Shown in pieces: positions 2,559 through 58,100 of a stretch of 64,000 nt of DNA; the first letter of the stretch is position 1, and every line of letters starts with the position of its first letter. The stretch covers positions 121,229 through 185,228 of the forward strand of contig DOSG01000008.1 in the NCBI GenBank assembly GCA_003514055.1, in the 5' to 3' direction. The translations under genes were made by a program, and so were the position numbers. The stretch is from Candidatus Yanofskybacteria bacterium (GTDB lineage: Bacteria; Patescibacteriota; Minisyncoccia; 2-02-FULL-40-12; GWA2-44-9). The notes under the pieces are model-generated. The model was given only the letters and a program-made list of their open reading frames with translations, searched no databases and was not told the origin of the DNA.

Positions 2559-3263
2559 TCAGATTCTCCTATTAATAAGATTTTCTTGATGAGCTTTTAT
2601 AACCTGCTCTGAAATATCAAAACAATTAAAGTACTCAAAAGCCTCTTTAATAAATGACCTGCTCACAGATAAGTGGTCAAACAAAATTTCTCTATCAATT
2701 TTATTAGAAACAACAATGCTATCTATTTTACAAACATACTCTTGCCAGAAAGGAATTATGTTGGAACTAAAAATAGTTTGGAGTTTTCTATCTTTTGTTC
2801 CATTAACTTTAATAGTTAGCTTGCCTTTATCTATATTAGTATTTTCAAGCAAATTTTTAATAAACAAAACAATCTCCGTGAATTTATATATTGTACTAAT
2901 GAAATCCAGGTATTCGCCTGGTTTAAGTTCTTTATTGTTTAGCTTACCAATCGTATCCTCGTATAGTGCAAATCTTGCCAAAAACTGGCCACTTTGATAT
3001 AAGCGAAACATCTCGATAAATTTATCCCAATCGGTAAAAAATTCTAATCCAGATTCAAAAATGTAGGGTCTTTTTGTGTGTTCTAGGTCTTGATTCGGTA
3101 TATGAGGAAAACTCCAGCCCCGAAGGCTAACTACCGATTTTTCTAAAATATCTTTGAGCTTTGCTTTCGAAATTAAGTTCTTCTCAAAAGCTTGTGATGG
3201 CTCAAAAATAACTTCCATATTCCCCACGGTCTTAAGTTTGTTTCTAACATCTGCGATATTCAT
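2559..3263 (-). CDS. hypothetical protein, co-oriented partner of the AlbA_2-like gene
   Basis: 234-aa ORF ending 18 nt before the start of the upstream gene on the same strand (operon-like). Confidence 0.3.
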   Translation of the reverse strand: MNIADVRNKLKTVGNMEVIFEPSQAFEKNLISKAKLKDILEKSVVSLRGWSFPHIPNQDLEHTKRPYIFESGLEFFTDWDKFIEMFRLYQSGQFLARFALYEDTIGKLNNKELKPGEYLDFISTIYKFTEIVLFIKNLLENTNIDKGKLTIKVNGTKDRKLQTIFSSNIIPFWQEYVCKIDSIVVSNKIDREILFDHLSVSRSFIKEAFEYFNCFDISEQVIKAHQENLINRRI

Positions 3264-3280
3264 AATATATCTAATTTTTA

Positions 3281-3895
3281 TTAAAAACCCTTTCTTTCTT
3301 TCTCAAAAAGAGAACTAGTATCTTCACTTTTCTCCGAAACATGTCTCCACCCCCTCTTGTGGTAATTTGTTATTTGTTTATCCATACCCCTAGTCATAAA
3401 ATCTTGTACATCAACCGGATTAATTAATTTTATAGAAGATGGTTTGTCTTTAAGAGTTCTTATATAGATGGCTCCTTCCTCTAAAATTTTATCTTTATGC
3501 TCCCCATTTTTTCGACAAATTATTGGATTTAAATAAAATTCTCTTATATCAAAGATTAGATACCGTTTTTTTCGATAGGTACCAATACCTATTTCGTAGT
3601 CAGCTTGAAAATTAGCAAACGATTCAACTTTTGCTTTAAGCTCTTCTATTTTTGTCACGAATTTGTTTAAGTGCTCCGCAGTAACGCCAACAAAATCAAA
3701 AGGTTTGTTATCTTTTATACCAACTATAACAAAACCTCCACTTTTTGTATTAGACATCGCTAAAATTGCCCGAATGAGTTTTTCTCTTGCCCAAACACTT
3801 TCTTCAAAATCAAAACTTTCCTTAAATTCTAGATTCAAGTTTTCAGTGTTTCCTTCTAAAATTTTCTCCATACTATCCTCGCTTATCTCCTTCAT
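3281..3895 (-). CDS. AlbA_2/Schlafen-like putative DNA-binding domain protein
   Basis: N-terminal stretch EGNTENLNLEFKESF...REKLIRAILAMSNTKSGGFVIVGIKDNKPFDFVGV matches the shape of the AlbA_2 (divergent RecG-like) domain. Confidence 0.45.
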   Translation of the reverse strand: MKEISEDSMEKILEGNTENLNLEFKESFDFEESVWAREKLIRAILAMSNTKSGGFVIVGIKDNKPFDFVGVTAEHLNKFVTKIEELKAKVESFANFQADYEIGIGTYRKKRYLIFDIREFYLNPIICRKNGEHKDKILEEGAIYIRTLKDKPSSIKLINPVDVQDFMTRGMDKQITNYHKRGWRHVSEKSEDTSSLFEKERKGF

Positions 3896-3955
3896 ACCTT
3901 AAAAATTATAAACTAAACCGATGCTCTCCGATCTCTCGATACTACAAGCTAGATG

Positions 3956-4026
3956 CTGCGAGGCTTGGATTCGGACCAAGATACCCGGCTTCAAAGGCCA
4001 GTGTCCTACCATTAGACGACCTCGCA
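3956..4026 (-). tRNA. tRNA-Gln (anticodon TTG)
   Basis: Reverse strand reads TGCGAGG-TC-GTCT-AATGGTA-GGAC-A-CTGGC-CTTTGAA-GCCGG-GTAT-CTTGG-TCCGAAT-CCAAG-CCTCGCA-G. Acceptor 7 bp, D stem 4 bp, anticodon stem 5 bp, T stem 5 bp; no encoded CCA. Confidence 0.75.
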
Positions 4027-4029
4027 ATA

Positions 4030-4281
4030 TTATTTTATCTTCTCAAGTATTCTCAACTTCTCCCTCGATCCTTCATAACTTTTGAAATATTTCTCCCTCT
4101 CTCTGGCAAATATCCTTGTGCTAAATTCTTCAGAATGCACTAGCTTAAATGGTCTCCTGGATTTAGTAGATCTGACTCGACCAGCATTGTGGCAAGTCAA
4201 CCTATCCTTAAGGTTATTTGTCATACCGACATAATAACCTCCATCTTTATCGCTTCTCAGTATATATACAAACTGTGCCAT
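4030..4281 (-). CDS. GIY-YIG nuclease family protein (small, URI-domain type)
   Basis: MAQFVYILRSDKDGGYYVGMTNNLKDRLTCHN carries the GIY...YVG motifs. Chosen start is the internal ATG preceded by AGGA. The longer track ORF (to 4317) would translate through a tRNA-like fragment. Confidence 0.65.
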   Translation of the reverse strand: MAQFVYILRSDKDGGYYVGMTNNLKDRLTCHNAGRVRSTKSRRPFKLVHSEEFSTRIFAREREKYFKSYEGSREKLRILEKIK

Positions 4282-4284
4282 ATG

Positions 4285-4329
4285 TGTCCTACCATTAGCC
4301 TGCCCGGCCAGGGACAACCTCGCAATATT
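4285..4329 (-). repeat. partial duplicate of the tRNA-Gln 5' portion (acceptor 5' strand plus D arm, with a 16-nt insertion)
   Basis: Segments TGTCCTACCATTAG and ACCTCGCAATATT occur at about 4002-4015/4019-4031 and again at about 4285-4298/4317-4329, bracketing the GIY-YIG ORF. Confidence 0.5.
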
Positions 4330-4376
4330 TAAGATTATGCCCTATTTTGGCATTTTTCTCAAGAGTTGACTTACTT

Positions 4377-4416
4377 AACAATGGCGGTCTTTGCCGCCTA
4401 AAAGGCCGCCATTGTT
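4377..4416 (-). terminator. stem-loop immediately downstream of dnaX (alternative nested hairpins)
   Basis: AACAATGGCGG...CCGCCATTGTT outer stem with an inner GGCGG-TCTTTG-CCGCC hairpin; weak U tract. Confidence 0.35.
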
Positions 4417-4422
4417 GAAGAG

Positions 4423-5505
4423 TTAACTAAATCCGAGGACGTCCATCACGGCCAATTCAAGAGATAGTGTCGGGATCGGAGACGTCTTCATCTCATTCCT
4501 GGCATTCGAGAAAGATGCGATCATCCTTACTACTAGCTTAGGGTCAATCTGATGAGTGAAATTAGCATCGCTCGAAATTTCTACATCGGAAAAATAGGCC
4601 GCCAAAGTCGCTGGACTAATTTTCGATATCAATACTTTGCGTAAATATTCTATTAATCCTTTCGAGAAGTTATCCAAATCAACTCCAGAACCATGGATAT
4701 CGCTTATAAATTCAATCGCCTTCTCTTTCTCGCTATTAAATATGAGAGACACGAACTTCGGGAAATAATCGGCGGGAATAAGACCCAAAGTTTCAATTAC
4801 GTCTTTAGCCGTGACTTCTTGGCCAAGAGGATATGCAGCCCTTATTTTAGATAAATAAACCTCGGCATCTCTTAGCGCACCATCAGCCGAGATAGCCATA
4901 GAGCGTAAGCTGTCATCTCCGATCTTTATCTTTTCTATGCGCGCGACATCTTTTATCTTATTAAAAATTTGATCGGTAGTAAGTCTCTTAAAATCAAATC
5001 TCTGAACGCGGGATAATACCGTTGGTAAGATCTTGTGCGATTCGGTGGTGGCTAGAATAAAGATTACGTGAGCCGGCGGCTCTTCTAAAATCTTAAGTAG
5101 TGCATTGAATGCGTCTTTGCTTAGCATATGAACTTCATCAATGATAAAAACCTTGTATTTACCGCTTGGAGCCGCGACTAGGGCCGATTCTTTAAGGTTG
5201 CGTATATCCTCGATGCCTCGATTTGAGGCGGCATCAATTTCAATTAAATCCATCGAACGGCCTTCATTCATTATCGAACAACTATCGCATTTATTGTCGG
5301 GATTTCCATCTTTGGATAGATTGTGGCAGTTCAAAGATTTAGCGAATACTCGCGCGACAGAGGTTTTACCGGTACCCCTGGGTCCGGTAAATAAATAAGC
5401 GTGGCCTATTCGGCCGCTTATTAATCCCCCGGTCAAAGTTTTTATTATATGATCCTGCCCCACAACTTCAGCAAACGTCTGGGGTCTATATTTTCTATAT
5501 AGCAT
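4423..5505 (-). CDS. dnaX: DNA polymerase III subunit gamma/tau
   Basis: MLYRKYRPQTFAEVVGQDHI...FTGPRGTGKTS Walker A and clamp-loader N-terminus. Confidence 0.85.
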   Translation of the reverse strand: MLYRKYRPQTFAEVVGQDHIIKTLTGGLISGRIGHAYLFTGPRGTGKTSVARVFAKSLNCHNLSKDGNPDNKCDSCSIMNEGRSMDLIEIDAASNRGIEDIRNLKESALVAAPSGKYKVFIIDEVHMLSKDAFNALLKILEEPPAHVIFILATTESHKILPTVLSRVQRFDFKRLTTDQIFNKIKDVARIEKIKIGDDSLRSMAISADGALRDAEVYLSKIRAAYPLGQEVTAKDVIETLGLIPADYFPKFVSLIFNSEKEKAIEFISDIHGSGVDLDNFSKGLIEYLRKVLISKISPATLAAYFSDVEISSDANFTHQIDPKLVVRMIASFSNARNEMKTSPIPTLSLELAVMDVLGFS

Positions 5506-47254: not shown

Positions 47255-47866
47255 TCATTTTTTACCTAATATTTTCAAAGCCTCACGGACCCTTTCTTCT
47301 AACGACTTACCTCCGCCCACTTCTTTCAATGCATTCGTGGCTTGGCTGGTACTGTAGCCGAGTGCCACTAAGGCCTCCACCACACTACTATCTTCACCAA
47401 GATTCATTCCGGTCACGTCCGCCGCATCTATGTAATCAACCTTAGTCTTGAGTTCCAAAACAAGCCTCTGGGCAAGCTTCCCACCGAAACCCGACACCTT
47501 CTTCAAGTAATCGGCATCCCCGTTCATAACAGCCGCTTTTAGATGCTGGGGCTCAACTACGGTTAGAATGGCCATAGCATTCTTGGAACCGACACCGTTT
47601 ACTGTTTTTAACAGATGAAACAACTCTAAATCCTGCCGCCTATCGAAACCGTATAGGTCAAAAGTGCCCTCGCGCATATTGAGCTGAGAATGGACGTATA
47701 GCTTAATTTTCCTATTGACATCGACCTTTTCTTTTGATACAATATTAAGCAATTTGGGGGATACTATGACCCTATACCCTATACCGCCCTGGCCGGGCAG
47801 GCCGGCATTCAAAATCAGGTACTTATCGCCCAAATATTCTATTGTTCCCTCTAGAAACGAGATCAT
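47255..47866 (-). CDS. ruvA: Holliday junction branch migration protein RuvA
   Basis: MISFLEGTIEY N-terminal OB, HhH pair, C-terminal RuvB-interaction domain. Confidence 0.85.
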   Translation of the reverse strand: MISFLEGTIEYLGDKYLILNAGLPGQGGIGYRVIVSPKLLNIVSKEKVDVNRKIKLYVHSQLNMREGTFDLYGFDRRQDLELFHLLKTVNGVGSKNAMAILTVVEPQHLKAAVMNGDADYLKKVSGFGGKLAQRLVLELKTKVDYIDAADVTGMNLGEDSSVVEALVALGYSTSQATNALKEVGGGKSLEERVREALKILGKK

Positions 47867-58022: not shown

Positions 58023-58027
58023 GATGT

Positions 58028-58100
58028 CCGCTCACCAGGATTCGAACCTGGGACCTTCTCCTTAAAAGGGAGCAGCTCTACCAACTGAGCTATGAGCGGA
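58028..58100 (-). tRNA. tRNA-Lys (anticodon TTT)
   Basis: Reverse strand reads CCGCTCA-TA-GCTC-AGTTGGTA-GAGC-T-GCTCC-CTTTTAA-GGAGA-AGGTC-CCAGG-TTCGAAT-CCTGG-TGAGCGG-A. Confidence 0.8.

Follow-up and report, generated by a model that had tools for sequence, protein, structure and literature searches.

In the window, by which we mean the whole 64,000-nucleotide stretch of a Candidatus Yanofskybacteria contig that was analysed, an intact tRNA-Gln gene is preceded by a very small gene of the GIY-YIG nuclease family, and on the far side of this gene there is a second, broken copy of the beginning of the same tRNA. The locus raises the question of how the 5' part of a tRNA gene came to be present twice with a nuclease gene between the copies, and whether this arrangement serves the cell or the gene itself. 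The reading that we consider probable is that positions 3955-4362 (minus strand) hold a tRNA-Gln gene invaded by a selfish, homing-type cassette of about 300 bp that regenerates the tRNA.

Read on the minus strand, the order of the elements is a promoter-like site, a split copy of tRNA-Gln nt -5 to 26, an ORF of 83 aa, 3 nt and then tRNA-Gln(UUG) (Table 1). The tRNA call of the first-pass annotation is sound, as the gene is called by ARAGORN and scores 59.7 bits (E 8.6e-12) with the Rfam tRNA model; its acceptor stem, read from the sequence, pairs perfectly including U1-A72. The ORF extends from 4317 to 4030 (95 aa) from a TTG or from 4281 to 4030 (83 aa) from an internal ATG (4281..4279), with the stop TAA at 4032..4030 and tRNA nt 1 (4026) lying 3 nt beyond. 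The internal ATG had already been proposed as the real start, and we accept it because the homologues begin M-x-[YF]-[FV]-V-Y-I-L. Pfam and ARAGORN agree with the earlier description of a GIY-YIG ORF separated from tRNA-Gln by a 3-nt gap, the length of 84 aa given at that time being corrected to 83.

Table 1. Features of the invaded tRNA-Gln locus and the second copy of the hairpin sequence in the window
Feature	Position	Strand	Evidence
Promoter-like TTGAGA-17 nt-CATAAT	4334..4362	-	consensus scan, 10/12 matches
Displaced tRNA remnant, block 1: leader nt -5..-1 (AATAT) and tRNA-Gln nt 1-12	4313..4329	-	direct repeat D2, BLASTN
15-nt GC-rich imperfect palindrome CCTGGCCGGGCAGGC (minus-strand reading)	4298..4312	-	sequence, repeat analysis
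Displaced tRNA remnant, block 2: tRNA-Gln nt 12/13-26, CTAATGGTAGGACAC	4284..4298	-	direct repeat D3
GIY-YIG nuclease ORF, 83 aa, minimal Slx1/UPF0213-type catalytic domain (predicted)	4030..4281	-	Pfam, PDB, AlphaFold, Foldseek
Intact tRNA-Gln(UUG)	3955..4026	-	ARAGORN; Rfam tRNA
Second exact 16-mer copy CCCTGGCCGGGCAGGC, in frame within ruvA	47787..47802	+	pattern search of window

The second copy of the tRNA start is made of two blocks which are direct repeats of the intact gene. D3 (4284-4298 against 4001-4015) is 15 nt long and 100% identical with a spacing of 283, and D2 (4313-4329 against 4015-4031) is 17 nt long and 94% identical with a spacing of 298. Together they form a colinear copy of leader nt -5 to -1 and tRNA nt 1-26 with a single mismatch at nt 9, and CCTGGCCGGGCAGGC interrupts it behind tRNA nt 12, where D-stem and D-loop meet, with a boundary that is ambiguous by 1 nt. 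The split copy and both spacings had been recognized before, with repeats of 14 and 13 nt and an insertion of 16 nt, which have now become 15 and 17 nt for the repeats and 15 nt for the insertion. That two exact blocks, of 15 and 13 nt, should lie colinear within 700 nt is far beyond chance, and the same two blocks are the top non-self matches of tRNA-Gln in a BLASTN comparison with the whole window. The arrangement was also found in L081 and L082, independent assemblies from other samples (the L081 stretch compared has the sequence of the window), and it is therefore not an assembly artefact.

The truncated copy occupies the position expected for the tRNA start relative to the promoter-like TTGAGA-17-CATAAT. 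There are 9 nt between the end of the -10 hexamer and nt 1 of the fragment, and in the related locus L083 an identical TTGAGA-17-CATAAT is placed at an equal distance ahead of the tRNA start. This element is presumed to be the native tRNA-Gln promoter, which would now drive fragment, ORF and tRNA. If the gene was invaded as proposed, the cassette would lie inside the 5' part of the original tRNA-Gln gene with the nuclease as its sole gene, and the original start (leader and nt 1-26) would have stayed beside its promoter as a dead remnant split by the GC hairpin. The second copy of the leader and nt 1-26, placed after the ORF, would be joined to nt 27-72, so that a complete and functional tRNA-Gln is kept. 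The ORF appears to lack its own promoter. The remnant, the ORF and the tRNA are probably one transcript from the tRNA promoter, and the AGGA of the remnant, 5 nt upstream of the ATG, could serve as its ribosome-binding site.

Both states of the site exist among related Yanofskybacteria. It is occupied in the window, L081 and L082, empty in L084 and L087, where tRNA-Gln comes after a promoter-like AT-rich sequence and both ORF and fragment are absent, and it carries a remnant in L083. This closest relative shares the promoter and shows 8 nt of tRNA start and 45 nt of remnant, but lacks the ORF, and is read as a likely deletion derivative. A fragment standing in a relative without the GIY-YIG gene had been named earlier as the mark of an ancestral pseudo-tRNA; L083 resembles that case only superficially, and L011 shows that ORF-deleted units derive from full units. 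The intact tRNA of the occupied loci has a D-arm sequence identical to that of the empty-site tRNAs, so that self-immunity cannot be put down entirely to a target disrupted by the insertion. Within the window, the search for further small GIY-YIG ORFs beside tRNAs suggested by the first-pass annotation gave nothing: ARAGORN and BLASTN found no other GIY-YIG copy or tRNA fragment there, and the tRNA-Lys gene (58026-58099) is uninvaded.

A scan for relatives recovered at least 505 stretches of bacterial DNA with this layout adjoining tRNA genes, the nuclease family comprising 3,698 clusters (50% identity) at E <= 1e-10. This extends the earlier description, which had neither the many phyla and isotypes of the family, nor the recurrence of the GC insertion as a hairpin that is also present in ruvA, nor the Slx1/UPF0213 type of the enzyme. 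Eighty homologous loci were compared, from many phyla and with many tRNA isotypes. A co-oriented tRNA lies within 150 nt in 67 of them and an antisense tRNA in none, the tRNA background being 6 per 295 kb of flanks. Moreover, in 57 of the 67 evaluable loci the side of the ORF away from the tRNA carries a partial copy of that same local tRNA, as against 2 of 61 control regions, and the copies are interrupted by GC-rich palindromes at D-, anticodon- or T-loop positions. The position of the remnant relative to the promoter, the empty sites of L084 and L087 and these 57 loci uphold the earlier proposal of a selfish insertion of about 300 bp into the 5' part of the tRNA gene, with regeneration of the tRNA. 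In other clades the target is the tRNA 3' end rather than the 5' end.

A chance neighbourhood with a decayed tandem duplication of the tRNA 5' end, or the att-site duplication of an integrase island, could be thought of since integration into tRNA genes is common and islands are often flanked by partial duplications of a tRNA. Integrase-borne islands and prophages do share with the window the insertion in a tRNA gene, the regenerated gene and the partial direct repeat, whereas they use a tyrosine or serine recombinase, measure kilobases and mostly duplicate the 3' end; the cassette has none of these traits. The unit has about 300 bp and no integrase, its single ORF is bounded almost exactly by the repeats, and no recombinase gene fits between them because the ORF (4030-4281) fills nearly all of the 252 nt available (4032-4283). 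As the duplicated end is the 5' and not the 3' one, and the order of ORF, tRNA and pseudo-copy recurs in the 57 loci always in the same orientation, both explanations are effectively refuted. A group I intron or other known RNA was also discarded, an Rfam E-value scan of 3000-5500 having returned the intact tRNA only.

In most tRNA-Gln loci the remnant copies agree with the acceptor stem of the local tRNA, and in several also with its anticodon stem. To either side of the hairpin the remnant has the sequence of the local tRNA, which fits homing within a population or local duplication and does not fit import from a distant donor. Yet at a wider scale, a neighbour-joining tree of the nucleases, based on about 70 residues and of low resolution, has clades that track tRNA isotype and hairpin type and not host taxonomy, and in the same low-resolution tree Saccharibacteria stand among Parcubacteria-group classes within the tRNA-Gln clade, which suggests transfer across lineages. 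Tandem arrays (about 11 of the 80 loci), ORF-deleted units (88 nt in L011), an enrichment of loci at contig ends (11 observed, 4.2 expected) and clades mixing CPR classes are signs of mobility. The cassette of the window is thus described, as part of the reading that we consider probable, as a member of a large family in which each clade is tied to one tRNA isotype.

The 83-aa protein matches PF01541 (GIY-YIG) with 59 bits (cut-off 22.6, E = 6e-16). Y6 and E63 are invariant, and of 45 homologues at least 90% retain Y17, R27 and H31. The AlphaFold model (pLDDT 93.8) has strands at 3-10, 16-21 and 45-53 and helices at 24-32, 56-67 and 69-82, a predicted three-stranded sheet flanked by helices (beta-beta-alpha-beta-alpha-alpha) as in the GIY-YIG superfamily. 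Sequence matches in the PDB were 1zg2 (3.8e-10), 1ywl (2.1e-8) and I-TevI (0.23), and Foldseek gave UPF0213 (1zg2), Slx1 and HIGLE as top matches (E 1e-4 to 1e-2; TM about 0.7 for Slx1 and HIGLE) and E > 1 for I-TevI and UvrC. From sequence and model the protein would be a minimal nuclease of the Slx1/UPF0213 type and not a homing endonuclease of the I-TevI type. The likeness to UPF0213/YhbQ (1zg2, 1ywl), Slx1 and HIGLE lies in the minimal GIY-YIG core and the catalytic residues, although Slx1 itself has a RING domain and the partner Slx4, and we know of no tRNA-gene linkage for UPF0213 proteins. In a survey of the superfamily from 2006 the prokaryotic Slx1-like proteins were regarded as vertically inherited repair enzymes (PMC1564403). 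The NCBIfam profiles gave sub-threshold matches only, the phage collection held only weak relatives (up to 44% identity), and PADLOC gave no match, by which an anti-phage defence gene was rejected.

I-TevI, I-BmoI and SegB have a sequence-specific DNA-binding domain attached to the nuclease domain, SegB being much larger than 83 aa with a C-terminal DNA-binding region, and to our knowledge every characterised GIY-YIG homing endonuclease has such a domain. According to Pfam and AlphaFold the nuclease of the window is a single domain over residues 3-82 with no DNA-binding domain, so that sequence-specific homing is not expected from the protein alone. As to the homing-type origin suggested by the first-pass annotation, empty (L084, L087) and occupied (window, L081, L082) alleles exist, but for an enzyme of the Slx1/UPF0213 type classical sequence-specific homing is not established.

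A close known parallel is SegB, a free-standing homing endonuclease of the GIY-YIG type from phages T4 and T6, whose gene is likewise embedded among tRNA genes, in a phage tRNA gene cluster (PMC2330249, PMC13096335). SegB cuts within tRNA genes, nuclease-dependent recombination leads to tandem arrays of tRNA and nuclease gene, and the link of SegB-type genes to many tRNA isotypes is statistically strong (PMC2330249, PMC13096335). A C-terminally truncated SegB variant has also been mentioned (PMC13096335). However, SegB is phage-borne and lies between intact tRNA genes, whereas the nuclease of the window is chromosomal and lies inside a tRNA gene, with a remnant and GC hairpins.

The gene could instead be a domesticated, host-beneficial factor linked to tRNA genes, the pseudo-copies being by-products of its breaks. 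Its task might be to remove R-loops or branched DNA where tRNA genes are heavily transcribed, or to amplify tRNA genes adaptively as SegB does. Its fold is shared with the structure-specific repair nucleases Slx1, HIGLE and UPF0213, and L008 carries a UPF0213 paralogue that is not tRNA-linked, and the family therefore includes cellular members. In addition, the tandem tRNA and segB arrays that SegB produces benefit the phage (PMC13096335). Nevertheless, the amplified tRNA copies are truncated or disrupted by hairpins and therefore useless, the gene is absent at the same site in related genomes, no PADLOC defence match was obtained, and the ORF-deleted units, the contig-end enrichment and the clades incongruent with their hosts indicate a parasite. 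We regard a benefit to the host as improbable.

The GC-rich insertion is found again outside this locus. The tRNA-Gln-linked homologous loci carry the same insert, or a long form of 29-34 nt, at the same tRNA position, and a pattern search of the window with the 16-mer gave 4 matches at up to 2 mismatches where 0.23 were expected. In ruvA (47255..47866, minus strand) the 16-mer encodes in frame an extra LPGQG, at which the alignment with solved RuvA structures is offset by 5 residues; this copy is tied to the tRNA-Gln cassette solely through the shared hairpin sequence. The RuvA 90% identity cluster, in which an allele without LPGQG was looked for, has one member only. Exact in-frame copies of the 16-mer were found in genes for Mfd (L133) and AlaRS (L175) on low-GC metagenome contigs, and no GIY-YIG gene was detected near them on those short loci. 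Among the first 120 matches listed in the metagenome scan for the 16-mer, most are due to chance in high-GC DNA and none adjoined a GIY-YIG gene or tRNA-Gln; the scan therefore gave no estimate of frequency, but it brought the in-frame insertions in protein genes to light. Hairpin-encoded peptides in N-terminal extensions (4 matches among 148 family representatives) were uninformative.

Since many remnants have 2-3 hairpins each, and in L032 the hairpin is placed in the anticodon loop and not in the D-loop, a fixed cassette end was ruled out; the multiple hairpins, together with the solo hairpins of protein genes, mean that the hairpin is not simply the end of the cassette. A structured 5' UTR was rejected as well, remnant and hairpin folding no better than shuffled sequence (z = 0.32). 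Among 52 inserts the sense strand was the more stable in 24 and the antisense strand in 18, with no clear excess, and a role in RNA is favoured no more than one in DNA.

The hairpin may, as a tentative alternative for this part of the locus, be an independent GC nano-element of 15-50 nt that is spread by other means and gathers in dead tRNA copies, which are highly transcribed and neutral to selection; its link with the nuclease clades would then be shared descent only, and this would be compatible with the selfish cassette. The short GC-rich palindrome is present at unrelated sites, as palindromic mini-elements are, including in-frame sites in protein genes such as the exact copies in ruvA, Mfd and AlaRS, and it takes several positions and several copies per remnant. 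Against this, all hairpin motifs of the 80 loci, whose flanks were covered for up to 3 kb per side, are within about 350 nt of the nuclease gene, and their density thus exceeds by orders of magnitude that of the window, with 2 copies in 64 kb. Moreover, hairpin type follows nuclease clade across phyla and tRNA isotypes, an identical 20-nt palindrome being found in loci labelled Planctomycetia, Berkelbacteria, Cytophagales and Maribacter, and enzymes of the Slx1 type act on hairpin and cruciform DNA. In being multicopy, GC-rich hairpins in AT-richer genomes the inserts resemble other short GC-rich palindromic mobile elements, namely the GC clusters of yeast mitochondria (PMC4478555), the double-hairpin elements of Allomyces, the palindromic elements of Rickettsia and bacterial REPs (PMC3733652), and as with these they are sometimes in frame in protein genes or placed in RNA genes. 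Some known GC-rich palindromic elements also lie near endonuclease ORFs. The hairpin of the window differs in that its short form has only 15 nt and is concentrated in dead tRNA copies by the GIY-YIG gene; whereas REPs are associated with a transposase of the RAYT/TnpA(REP) type, the only recurrent neighbour sought and found here is the GIY-YIG gene.

It is very unlikely that the hairpins are removable mini-introns, with functional hairpin-bearing tRNA copies and an arrangement at the RNA level in the window. Every insert is located in a loop, and the sole full-length copy seen of tRNA-Ser(UGA) in L067 is perfect apart from a double hairpin of 30 nt that lies within the anticodon. Yet bacteria lack the archaeal splicing endonuclease, the inserts are far below ribozyme length with no Rfam match there, and those of the protein genes (ruvA, Mfd, AlaRS) measure exactly 15 nt and keep the reading frame, as fits translation and not splicing. 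The fragment of the window, with only nt 1-26, cannot form a tRNA, and most other copies are truncated or have no pairing acceptor strand, as the downstream copy of L046. Position 35/36 is a proven site of group I introns in tRNAs of Patescibacteria (PMC13011429), the host phylum of the window, whose tRNA genes are interrupted at that position among others; in contrast to them the window has no ribozyme and its tRNA is duplicated, not interrupted. That paper reports no GIY-YIG genes, hairpins or duplications (PMC13011429). In L051 a tRNA-Asn adjoining a cassette is interrupted at 35/36 by a long insert, which from its sequence is read as a putative group I intron.

For the selfish cassette that we prefer, a course of events can be proposed. 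The nuclease would break or nick an unoccupied tRNA gene, or the hairpin or cruciform in its own repeat, and repair by recombination against an occupied copy would bring a copy of hairpin, tRNA nt 13-26, ORF, leader and tRNA nt 1-12 to the D-loop position. Further rounds would produce the tandem arrays and ORF-deleted units, and the hairpin may stabilise the insertion by disrupting the homology of the direct repeats and any cleavage site in the remnant. A precedent exists in fungal mitochondria, where Paquin et al. in 1994 are said to have described atp6-ORF360 of Allomyces, an endonuclease ORF in the mtDNA that carries a duplicated end of the invaded gene. Such mobile ORFs bring a replacement gene end, so that the host keeps an intact gene and its resident end persists as a pseudo-fragment. 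They differ in concerning the 3' ends of protein genes in organelles and in having larger endonucleases, whereas here a minimal nuclease is found at the 5' end of a tRNA gene in bacteria. A full-text search of the literature, of incomplete coverage, turned up no paper that describes mini GIY-YIG genes together with tRNA pseudo-copies and hairpins.

A wider proposal, possible but in our opinion rather doubtful, is that mini GIY-YIG genes and GC palindromes form a previously unrecognised mobile system of bacteria, with a structure-specific Slx1-like nuclease that lacks a DNA-binding domain, extruded hairpin or cloverleaf DNA as its cis sites and solo hairpins (15-50 nt) as non-autonomous members. 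The nuclease would spread into positions coding for tRNA loops and rebuild the gene, and solo hairpins would reach the loops of further tRNAs and, in frame, essential protein genes such as ruvA, mfd and alaS.

If this is true, the common gene generically annotated as "GIY-YIG nuclease family protein" would mark widespread selfish elements of bacterial chromosomes, which live in tRNA genes of CPR bacteria, Bacteroidota, Planctomycetota, Ignavibacteriota and others, and a minimal nuclease of the Slx1 type, hitherto considered a repair enzyme, would be able to sustain a homing-like lifestyle. The elements could be a source of partial or disrupted tRNA copies and of over-extended gene calls that translate tRNA-like sequence, and may be a reason for contig breaks beside tRNA genes in metagenome-assembled genomes. 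In addition, a 15-nt GC hairpin that inserts in frame into conserved proteins would give reduced genomes a further, new origin of small indels. An 83-aa enzyme with a 20-nt palindrome would moreover be a testable system, with a possible use as a structure-directed nuclease.

The tRNA-Gln(UUG) gene of the window, which the first-pass annotation had called and which ARAGORN and Rfam (59.7 bits) both confirm, is preceded by a small GIY-YIG ORF and, on the far side of this ORF, by a partial copy of the tRNA (the remnant) that begins 9 nt downstream of a promoter-like site. The duplicated 5' fragment, its GC-rich insertion and the nuclease gene of that annotation were all found in place, with the protein corrected from 84 to 83 aa and the insertion, a short palindromic hairpin, from 16 to 15 nt. 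The direct repeats are 15 nt (100% identity) and 17 nt (94% identity) long. The longer 95-aa ORF given by the gene callers (P0001) is a translation running through the tRNA-like fragment, and homologues begin at the internal Met that had been suggested as the real start. Two independent assemblies (L081 and L082) carry the same arrangement, the stretch read in L081 matching the window. Protein identity of DnaX and RuvA assigns the window to a genome of Candidatus Yanofskybacteria.

Features of the window tRNA-Gln cassette, and further loci carrying the hairpin 16-mer
Feature	Position	Strand	Remark
Promoter-like site TTGAGA-17-CATAAT	4362..4334	minus	
Remnant block 1: leader AATAT and tRNA-Gln nt 1-12	4329..4313	minus	one mismatch
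15-nt GC-rich insert CCTGGCCGGGCAGGC	directly after tRNA-Gln nt 12 of remnant	minus	
Remnant block 2: tRNA-Gln nt 13-26	ends 4284	minus	ORF ATG two nt on
GIY-YIG ORF, 83 aa	4281..4030	minus	starts ATG, ends TAA
Complete tRNA-Gln(UUG)	4026..3955	minus	begins 3 nt past the TAA of the ORF
Other 16-mer loci	L090 909-924; L126 1896-1926 and 2343-2358; L157, L182, L103		

The T-loop of the intact tRNA-Gln (3955-4026, minus), GGTCCGAATCC, has C in place of the near-universal U55, as have those of loci L008 and L087, and its CCA end is not encoded. Between the dnaX stop (4423) and the promoter-like site lies a 16-nt inverted repeat with an 8-nt loop (4377-4416), probably the dnaX terminator. A second promoter-like match, TTGAGA-16-AATAAT (4027-4056, minus), covers the last nuclease codons directly before the intact tRNA; its first hexamer is that of the native promoter, and its -10 hexamer is too near tRNA nt 1 for a full-length transcript. 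The product of the next gene downstream of the tRNA (3281-3895, minus) has a Schlafen AlbA_2 domain (Pfam E = 1.3e-10), and the gene has no evident connection to the cassette.

The window protein matches the Pfam GIY-YIG family (E = 6e-16). Among proteins of solved structure, two of the UPF0213 family (BH0048 and EF2693) are nearest to it in sequence, and Slx1 comes next. Its AlphaFold model is confident (pLDDT 93.8) and structurally closest to UPF0213, Slx1 and plant HIGLE (TM about 0.7, rmsd 2.1-3.8 Å); I-TevI and UvrC gave E > 1 in the same comparison. Residues Y6, Y17, R27, H31 and E63 are conserved among 45 homologues. By the Pfam match, the Slx1-like fold and this conservation, the protein is a minimal Slx1-type nuclease and probably active. 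Characterised nucleases of this type are structure-specific, and the window protein has no DNA-binding domain. Searches with it gave no match in PADLOC and only sub-threshold matches in NCBIfam. The genome region of homologous locus L008 also contains a second, more canonical UPF0213/YhbQ-like GIY-YIG gene (777-1010, minus), which adjoins no tRNA, is followed by a terminator-like hairpin, and may be the cellular source of the tRNA-linked clade.

Relatives were sought in one genome per species, which gave at least 505, and the best 80 of these were examined. A tRNA on the same strand lies within 150 nt in 67 of the 80 loci (downstream in 50, upstream in 18) and an antisense tRNA within that distance in none; the background density in the locus flanks is 6 tRNAs per 295 kb. 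Most of the 13 remaining loci are cut by contig ends, and three are from Hadesarchaea. Among these best 80 of at least 505, the closest homologues all lie directly upstream of tRNA-Gln, and more distant clades adjoin tRNA-Ser, Ala, Arg, Met, Leu, Asn, Tyr, Glu, Gly or His, in hosts that include Patescibacteria, Bacteroidota, Planctomycetota, Calditrichota, Ignavibacteriota, Omnitrophota and Verrucomicrobiota. Across 1.84 billion cluster representatives, 3,698 clusters matched a profile of the family at E <= 1e-10. A full-text literature search found no description of such a tRNA-linked mini GIY-YIG family. On an IMG/VR contig classed as viral (L239, 470-600), a tRNA pseudo-copy with the 20-nt palindrome CCTGCCTGCCGGCAGGCAGG is followed by a mini GIY-YIG ORF. 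At L051 (3227-3420), one of those 13 loci, a long insert, read as a putative group I intron, splits the downstream tRNA-Asn(GUU) at 35/36; ARAGORN missed this tRNA, and an Rfam scan of the locus at gathering thresholds gave nothing at that place. Group I introns in Patescibacteria tRNAs have recently been described at position 35/36 (PMC13011429); they are a phenomenon distinct from the cassette.

Of 67 evaluable loci, 57 repeat a stretch of 11 nt or more of the adjacent tRNA without mismatch on the far side of the ORF or ORFs; among 61 control regions lying 1 kb beyond, 2 do so. At most tRNA-Gln loci the copy has the acceptor stem of its own genome, and also the local anticodon stem where it reaches that far (L012, L025, L005); it therefore derives from local DNA and not from an imported consensus. 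In a few cases (L003, L046, L054) it differs from the neighbouring tRNA. The duplication mostly starts 0-5 nt from tRNA nt 1 and meets the ORF at nt 25 to 33, depending on the locus. Other clades have the mirror layout of intact tRNA, ORF and a copy of the tRNA 3' part, and the side holding the intact tRNA can differ even between close relatives.

Related tRNA-Gln loci free of the nuclease gene, the comparison proposed at the outset, do exist. In two related Yanofskybacteria (L084, L087) an AT-rich promoter-like sequence runs straight into tRNA-Gln with nothing between. The closest relative (L083, DnaX 72% identical) has the same TTGAGA-17-CATAAT and no nuclease ORF at the site; tRNA nt 1-8 come first, and a 45-nt remnant with a small hairpin in it separates them from the intact tRNA. 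These layouts place the truncated copy at the ancestral start of the gene and indicate that the ORF can be lost. How it is lost is shown by locus L011 (2860-3341): upstream of tRNA-Gln, a full cassette has an 88-nt unit on either side, the two being identical. Each unit is made up of remnant, hairpin and the opening 3 and closing 10 codons, and both are miniature, non-autonomous cassette derivatives. In about 11 of the 80 loci, two or three nuclease genes lie in tandem, every one with a pseudo-tRNA of its own. More nuclease genes lie near contig ends than expected (11 against 4.2), which fits with repeats breaking assemblies. In a tree of low resolution, Saccharibacteria fall among several Parcubacteria-group classes in the tRNA-Gln clade.

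Most tRNA-Gln-linked remnants carry after nt 12 either the window 15-mer or a 29-34-nt long form, of which the short form lacks the inner 16 nt. Other GC-rich inserts occur in L025, L039 and L054, and in L032 the long form sits in the anticodon loop. Other clades have GC palindromes of their own, such as CCCGCCCG...CGGGCGGG and the perfect 20-mer CCTGCCTGCCGGCAGGCAGG, the latter identical in loci labelled Planctomycetia, Berkelbacteria, Paceibacterota, Cytophagales and Maribacter, and Bacteroidota tRNA-Ser copies have mini-hairpins in pairs. Inserts occupy D-loop, anticodon-loop or T-loop positions, frequently two or three per copy; hairpin type tracks nuclease clade, and within the 80 loci the motifs are confined to about 350 nt around the nuclease gene. 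At L067 (3233-3345) a full-length tRNA-Ser(UGA) copy beside the nuclease gene is perfect but for a 30-nt double hairpin in the anticodon; no uninterrupted copy was seen at this locus, which raises the question of hairpin removal from RNA. At L071 (3306-3437) a double cassette in tRNA-Arg is directly followed by a copy of about the first 22 nt of tRNA-Pro, interrupted by a hairpin, and then by tRNA-Pro itself, intact; no nuclease ORF separates the two, so that ORF-less scars occur in neighbouring tRNA genes.

The 16-mer CCCTGGCCGGGCAGGC has a second exact copy in the window at 47787-47802 (+), in frame in ruvA (47255..47866, minus), where it adds LPGQG immediately ahead of the conserved GIGYRV; the added residues are absent from solved RuvA structures, and the alignment to these is offset by five residues there. 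On low-GC metagenome contigs, exact in-frame copies fall in an Mfd gene (L133, 532-547), within the linker that precedes the RID domain, and in an AlaRS gene, where the 16-mer splits the conserved FEMLGNFSFGDYF motif between FSF and GGY (L175, 1333-1348). Elsewhere in metagenomes it occurs in a membrane-protein ORF and in a non-coding repeat family, in one case as two tandem copies. These short metagenome loci contain no GIY-YIG gene. The copies in ruvA, Mfd, AlaRS and non-coding repeats therefore suggest that the hairpin acts as its own tiny insertion element.

The cassette would have arisen through repair of a nuclease-induced break against an occupied copy, by which a unit (hairpin, tRNA 13-26, ORF, leader, tRNA 1-12) was copied into an unoccupied tRNA-Gln gene at its D-loop position. 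The native start would be left as the remnant and the gene rebuilt, with head-to-tail arrays produced by repeated rounds. The ORF could be expressed from the tRNA promoter, with AGGA of the remnant as its ribosome-binding site. By cutting the direct repeat into short blocks (17 and about 15 nt in the window, up to about 55 nt elsewhere) the hairpin would make it harder for recombination to delete the ORF, and this is likely its benefit to the cassette. Copying has its difficulties, as the enzyme has no recognition domain and the intact tRNA D-arm is the same in occupied loci and at empty sites; staggered, structure-directed nicks at cloverleaf junctions could alternatively give long, variable target duplications. 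Furthermore, the several hairpins per remnant indicate that the hairpin is more than a cassette end. Alternatively, the Slx1-like enzyme could cut extruded palindromes, freeing units homologous at their ends to adjacent tRNA positions, which would integrate ends-in.

In fungal mitochondria, too, endonuclease ORFs carry a replacement gene end. The closest functional analogue is SegB, which is larger than the window protein and phage-borne. This GIY-YIG homing endonuclease of the T4/T6 tRNA cluster (PMC2330249, PMC13096335) cuts within tRNA genes and drives tandem amplification (PMC13096335). Short GC-rich palindromic elements of other kinds occur in Allomyces mitochondria and Rickettsia, in yeast mitochondria (PMC4478555) and as REPs (PMC3733652). 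Prokaryotic Slx1-like proteins were regarded in a 2006 superfamily survey as repair enzymes inherited vertically (PMC1564403). The comparative data support and much extend the original proposal of a selfish insertion that entered the 5' part of the tRNA and regenerated it. The cassette would accordingly be a selfish element of the homing-endonuclease kind, a lifestyle to which neither this nuclease type nor its association with hairpins is known to have been linked before.
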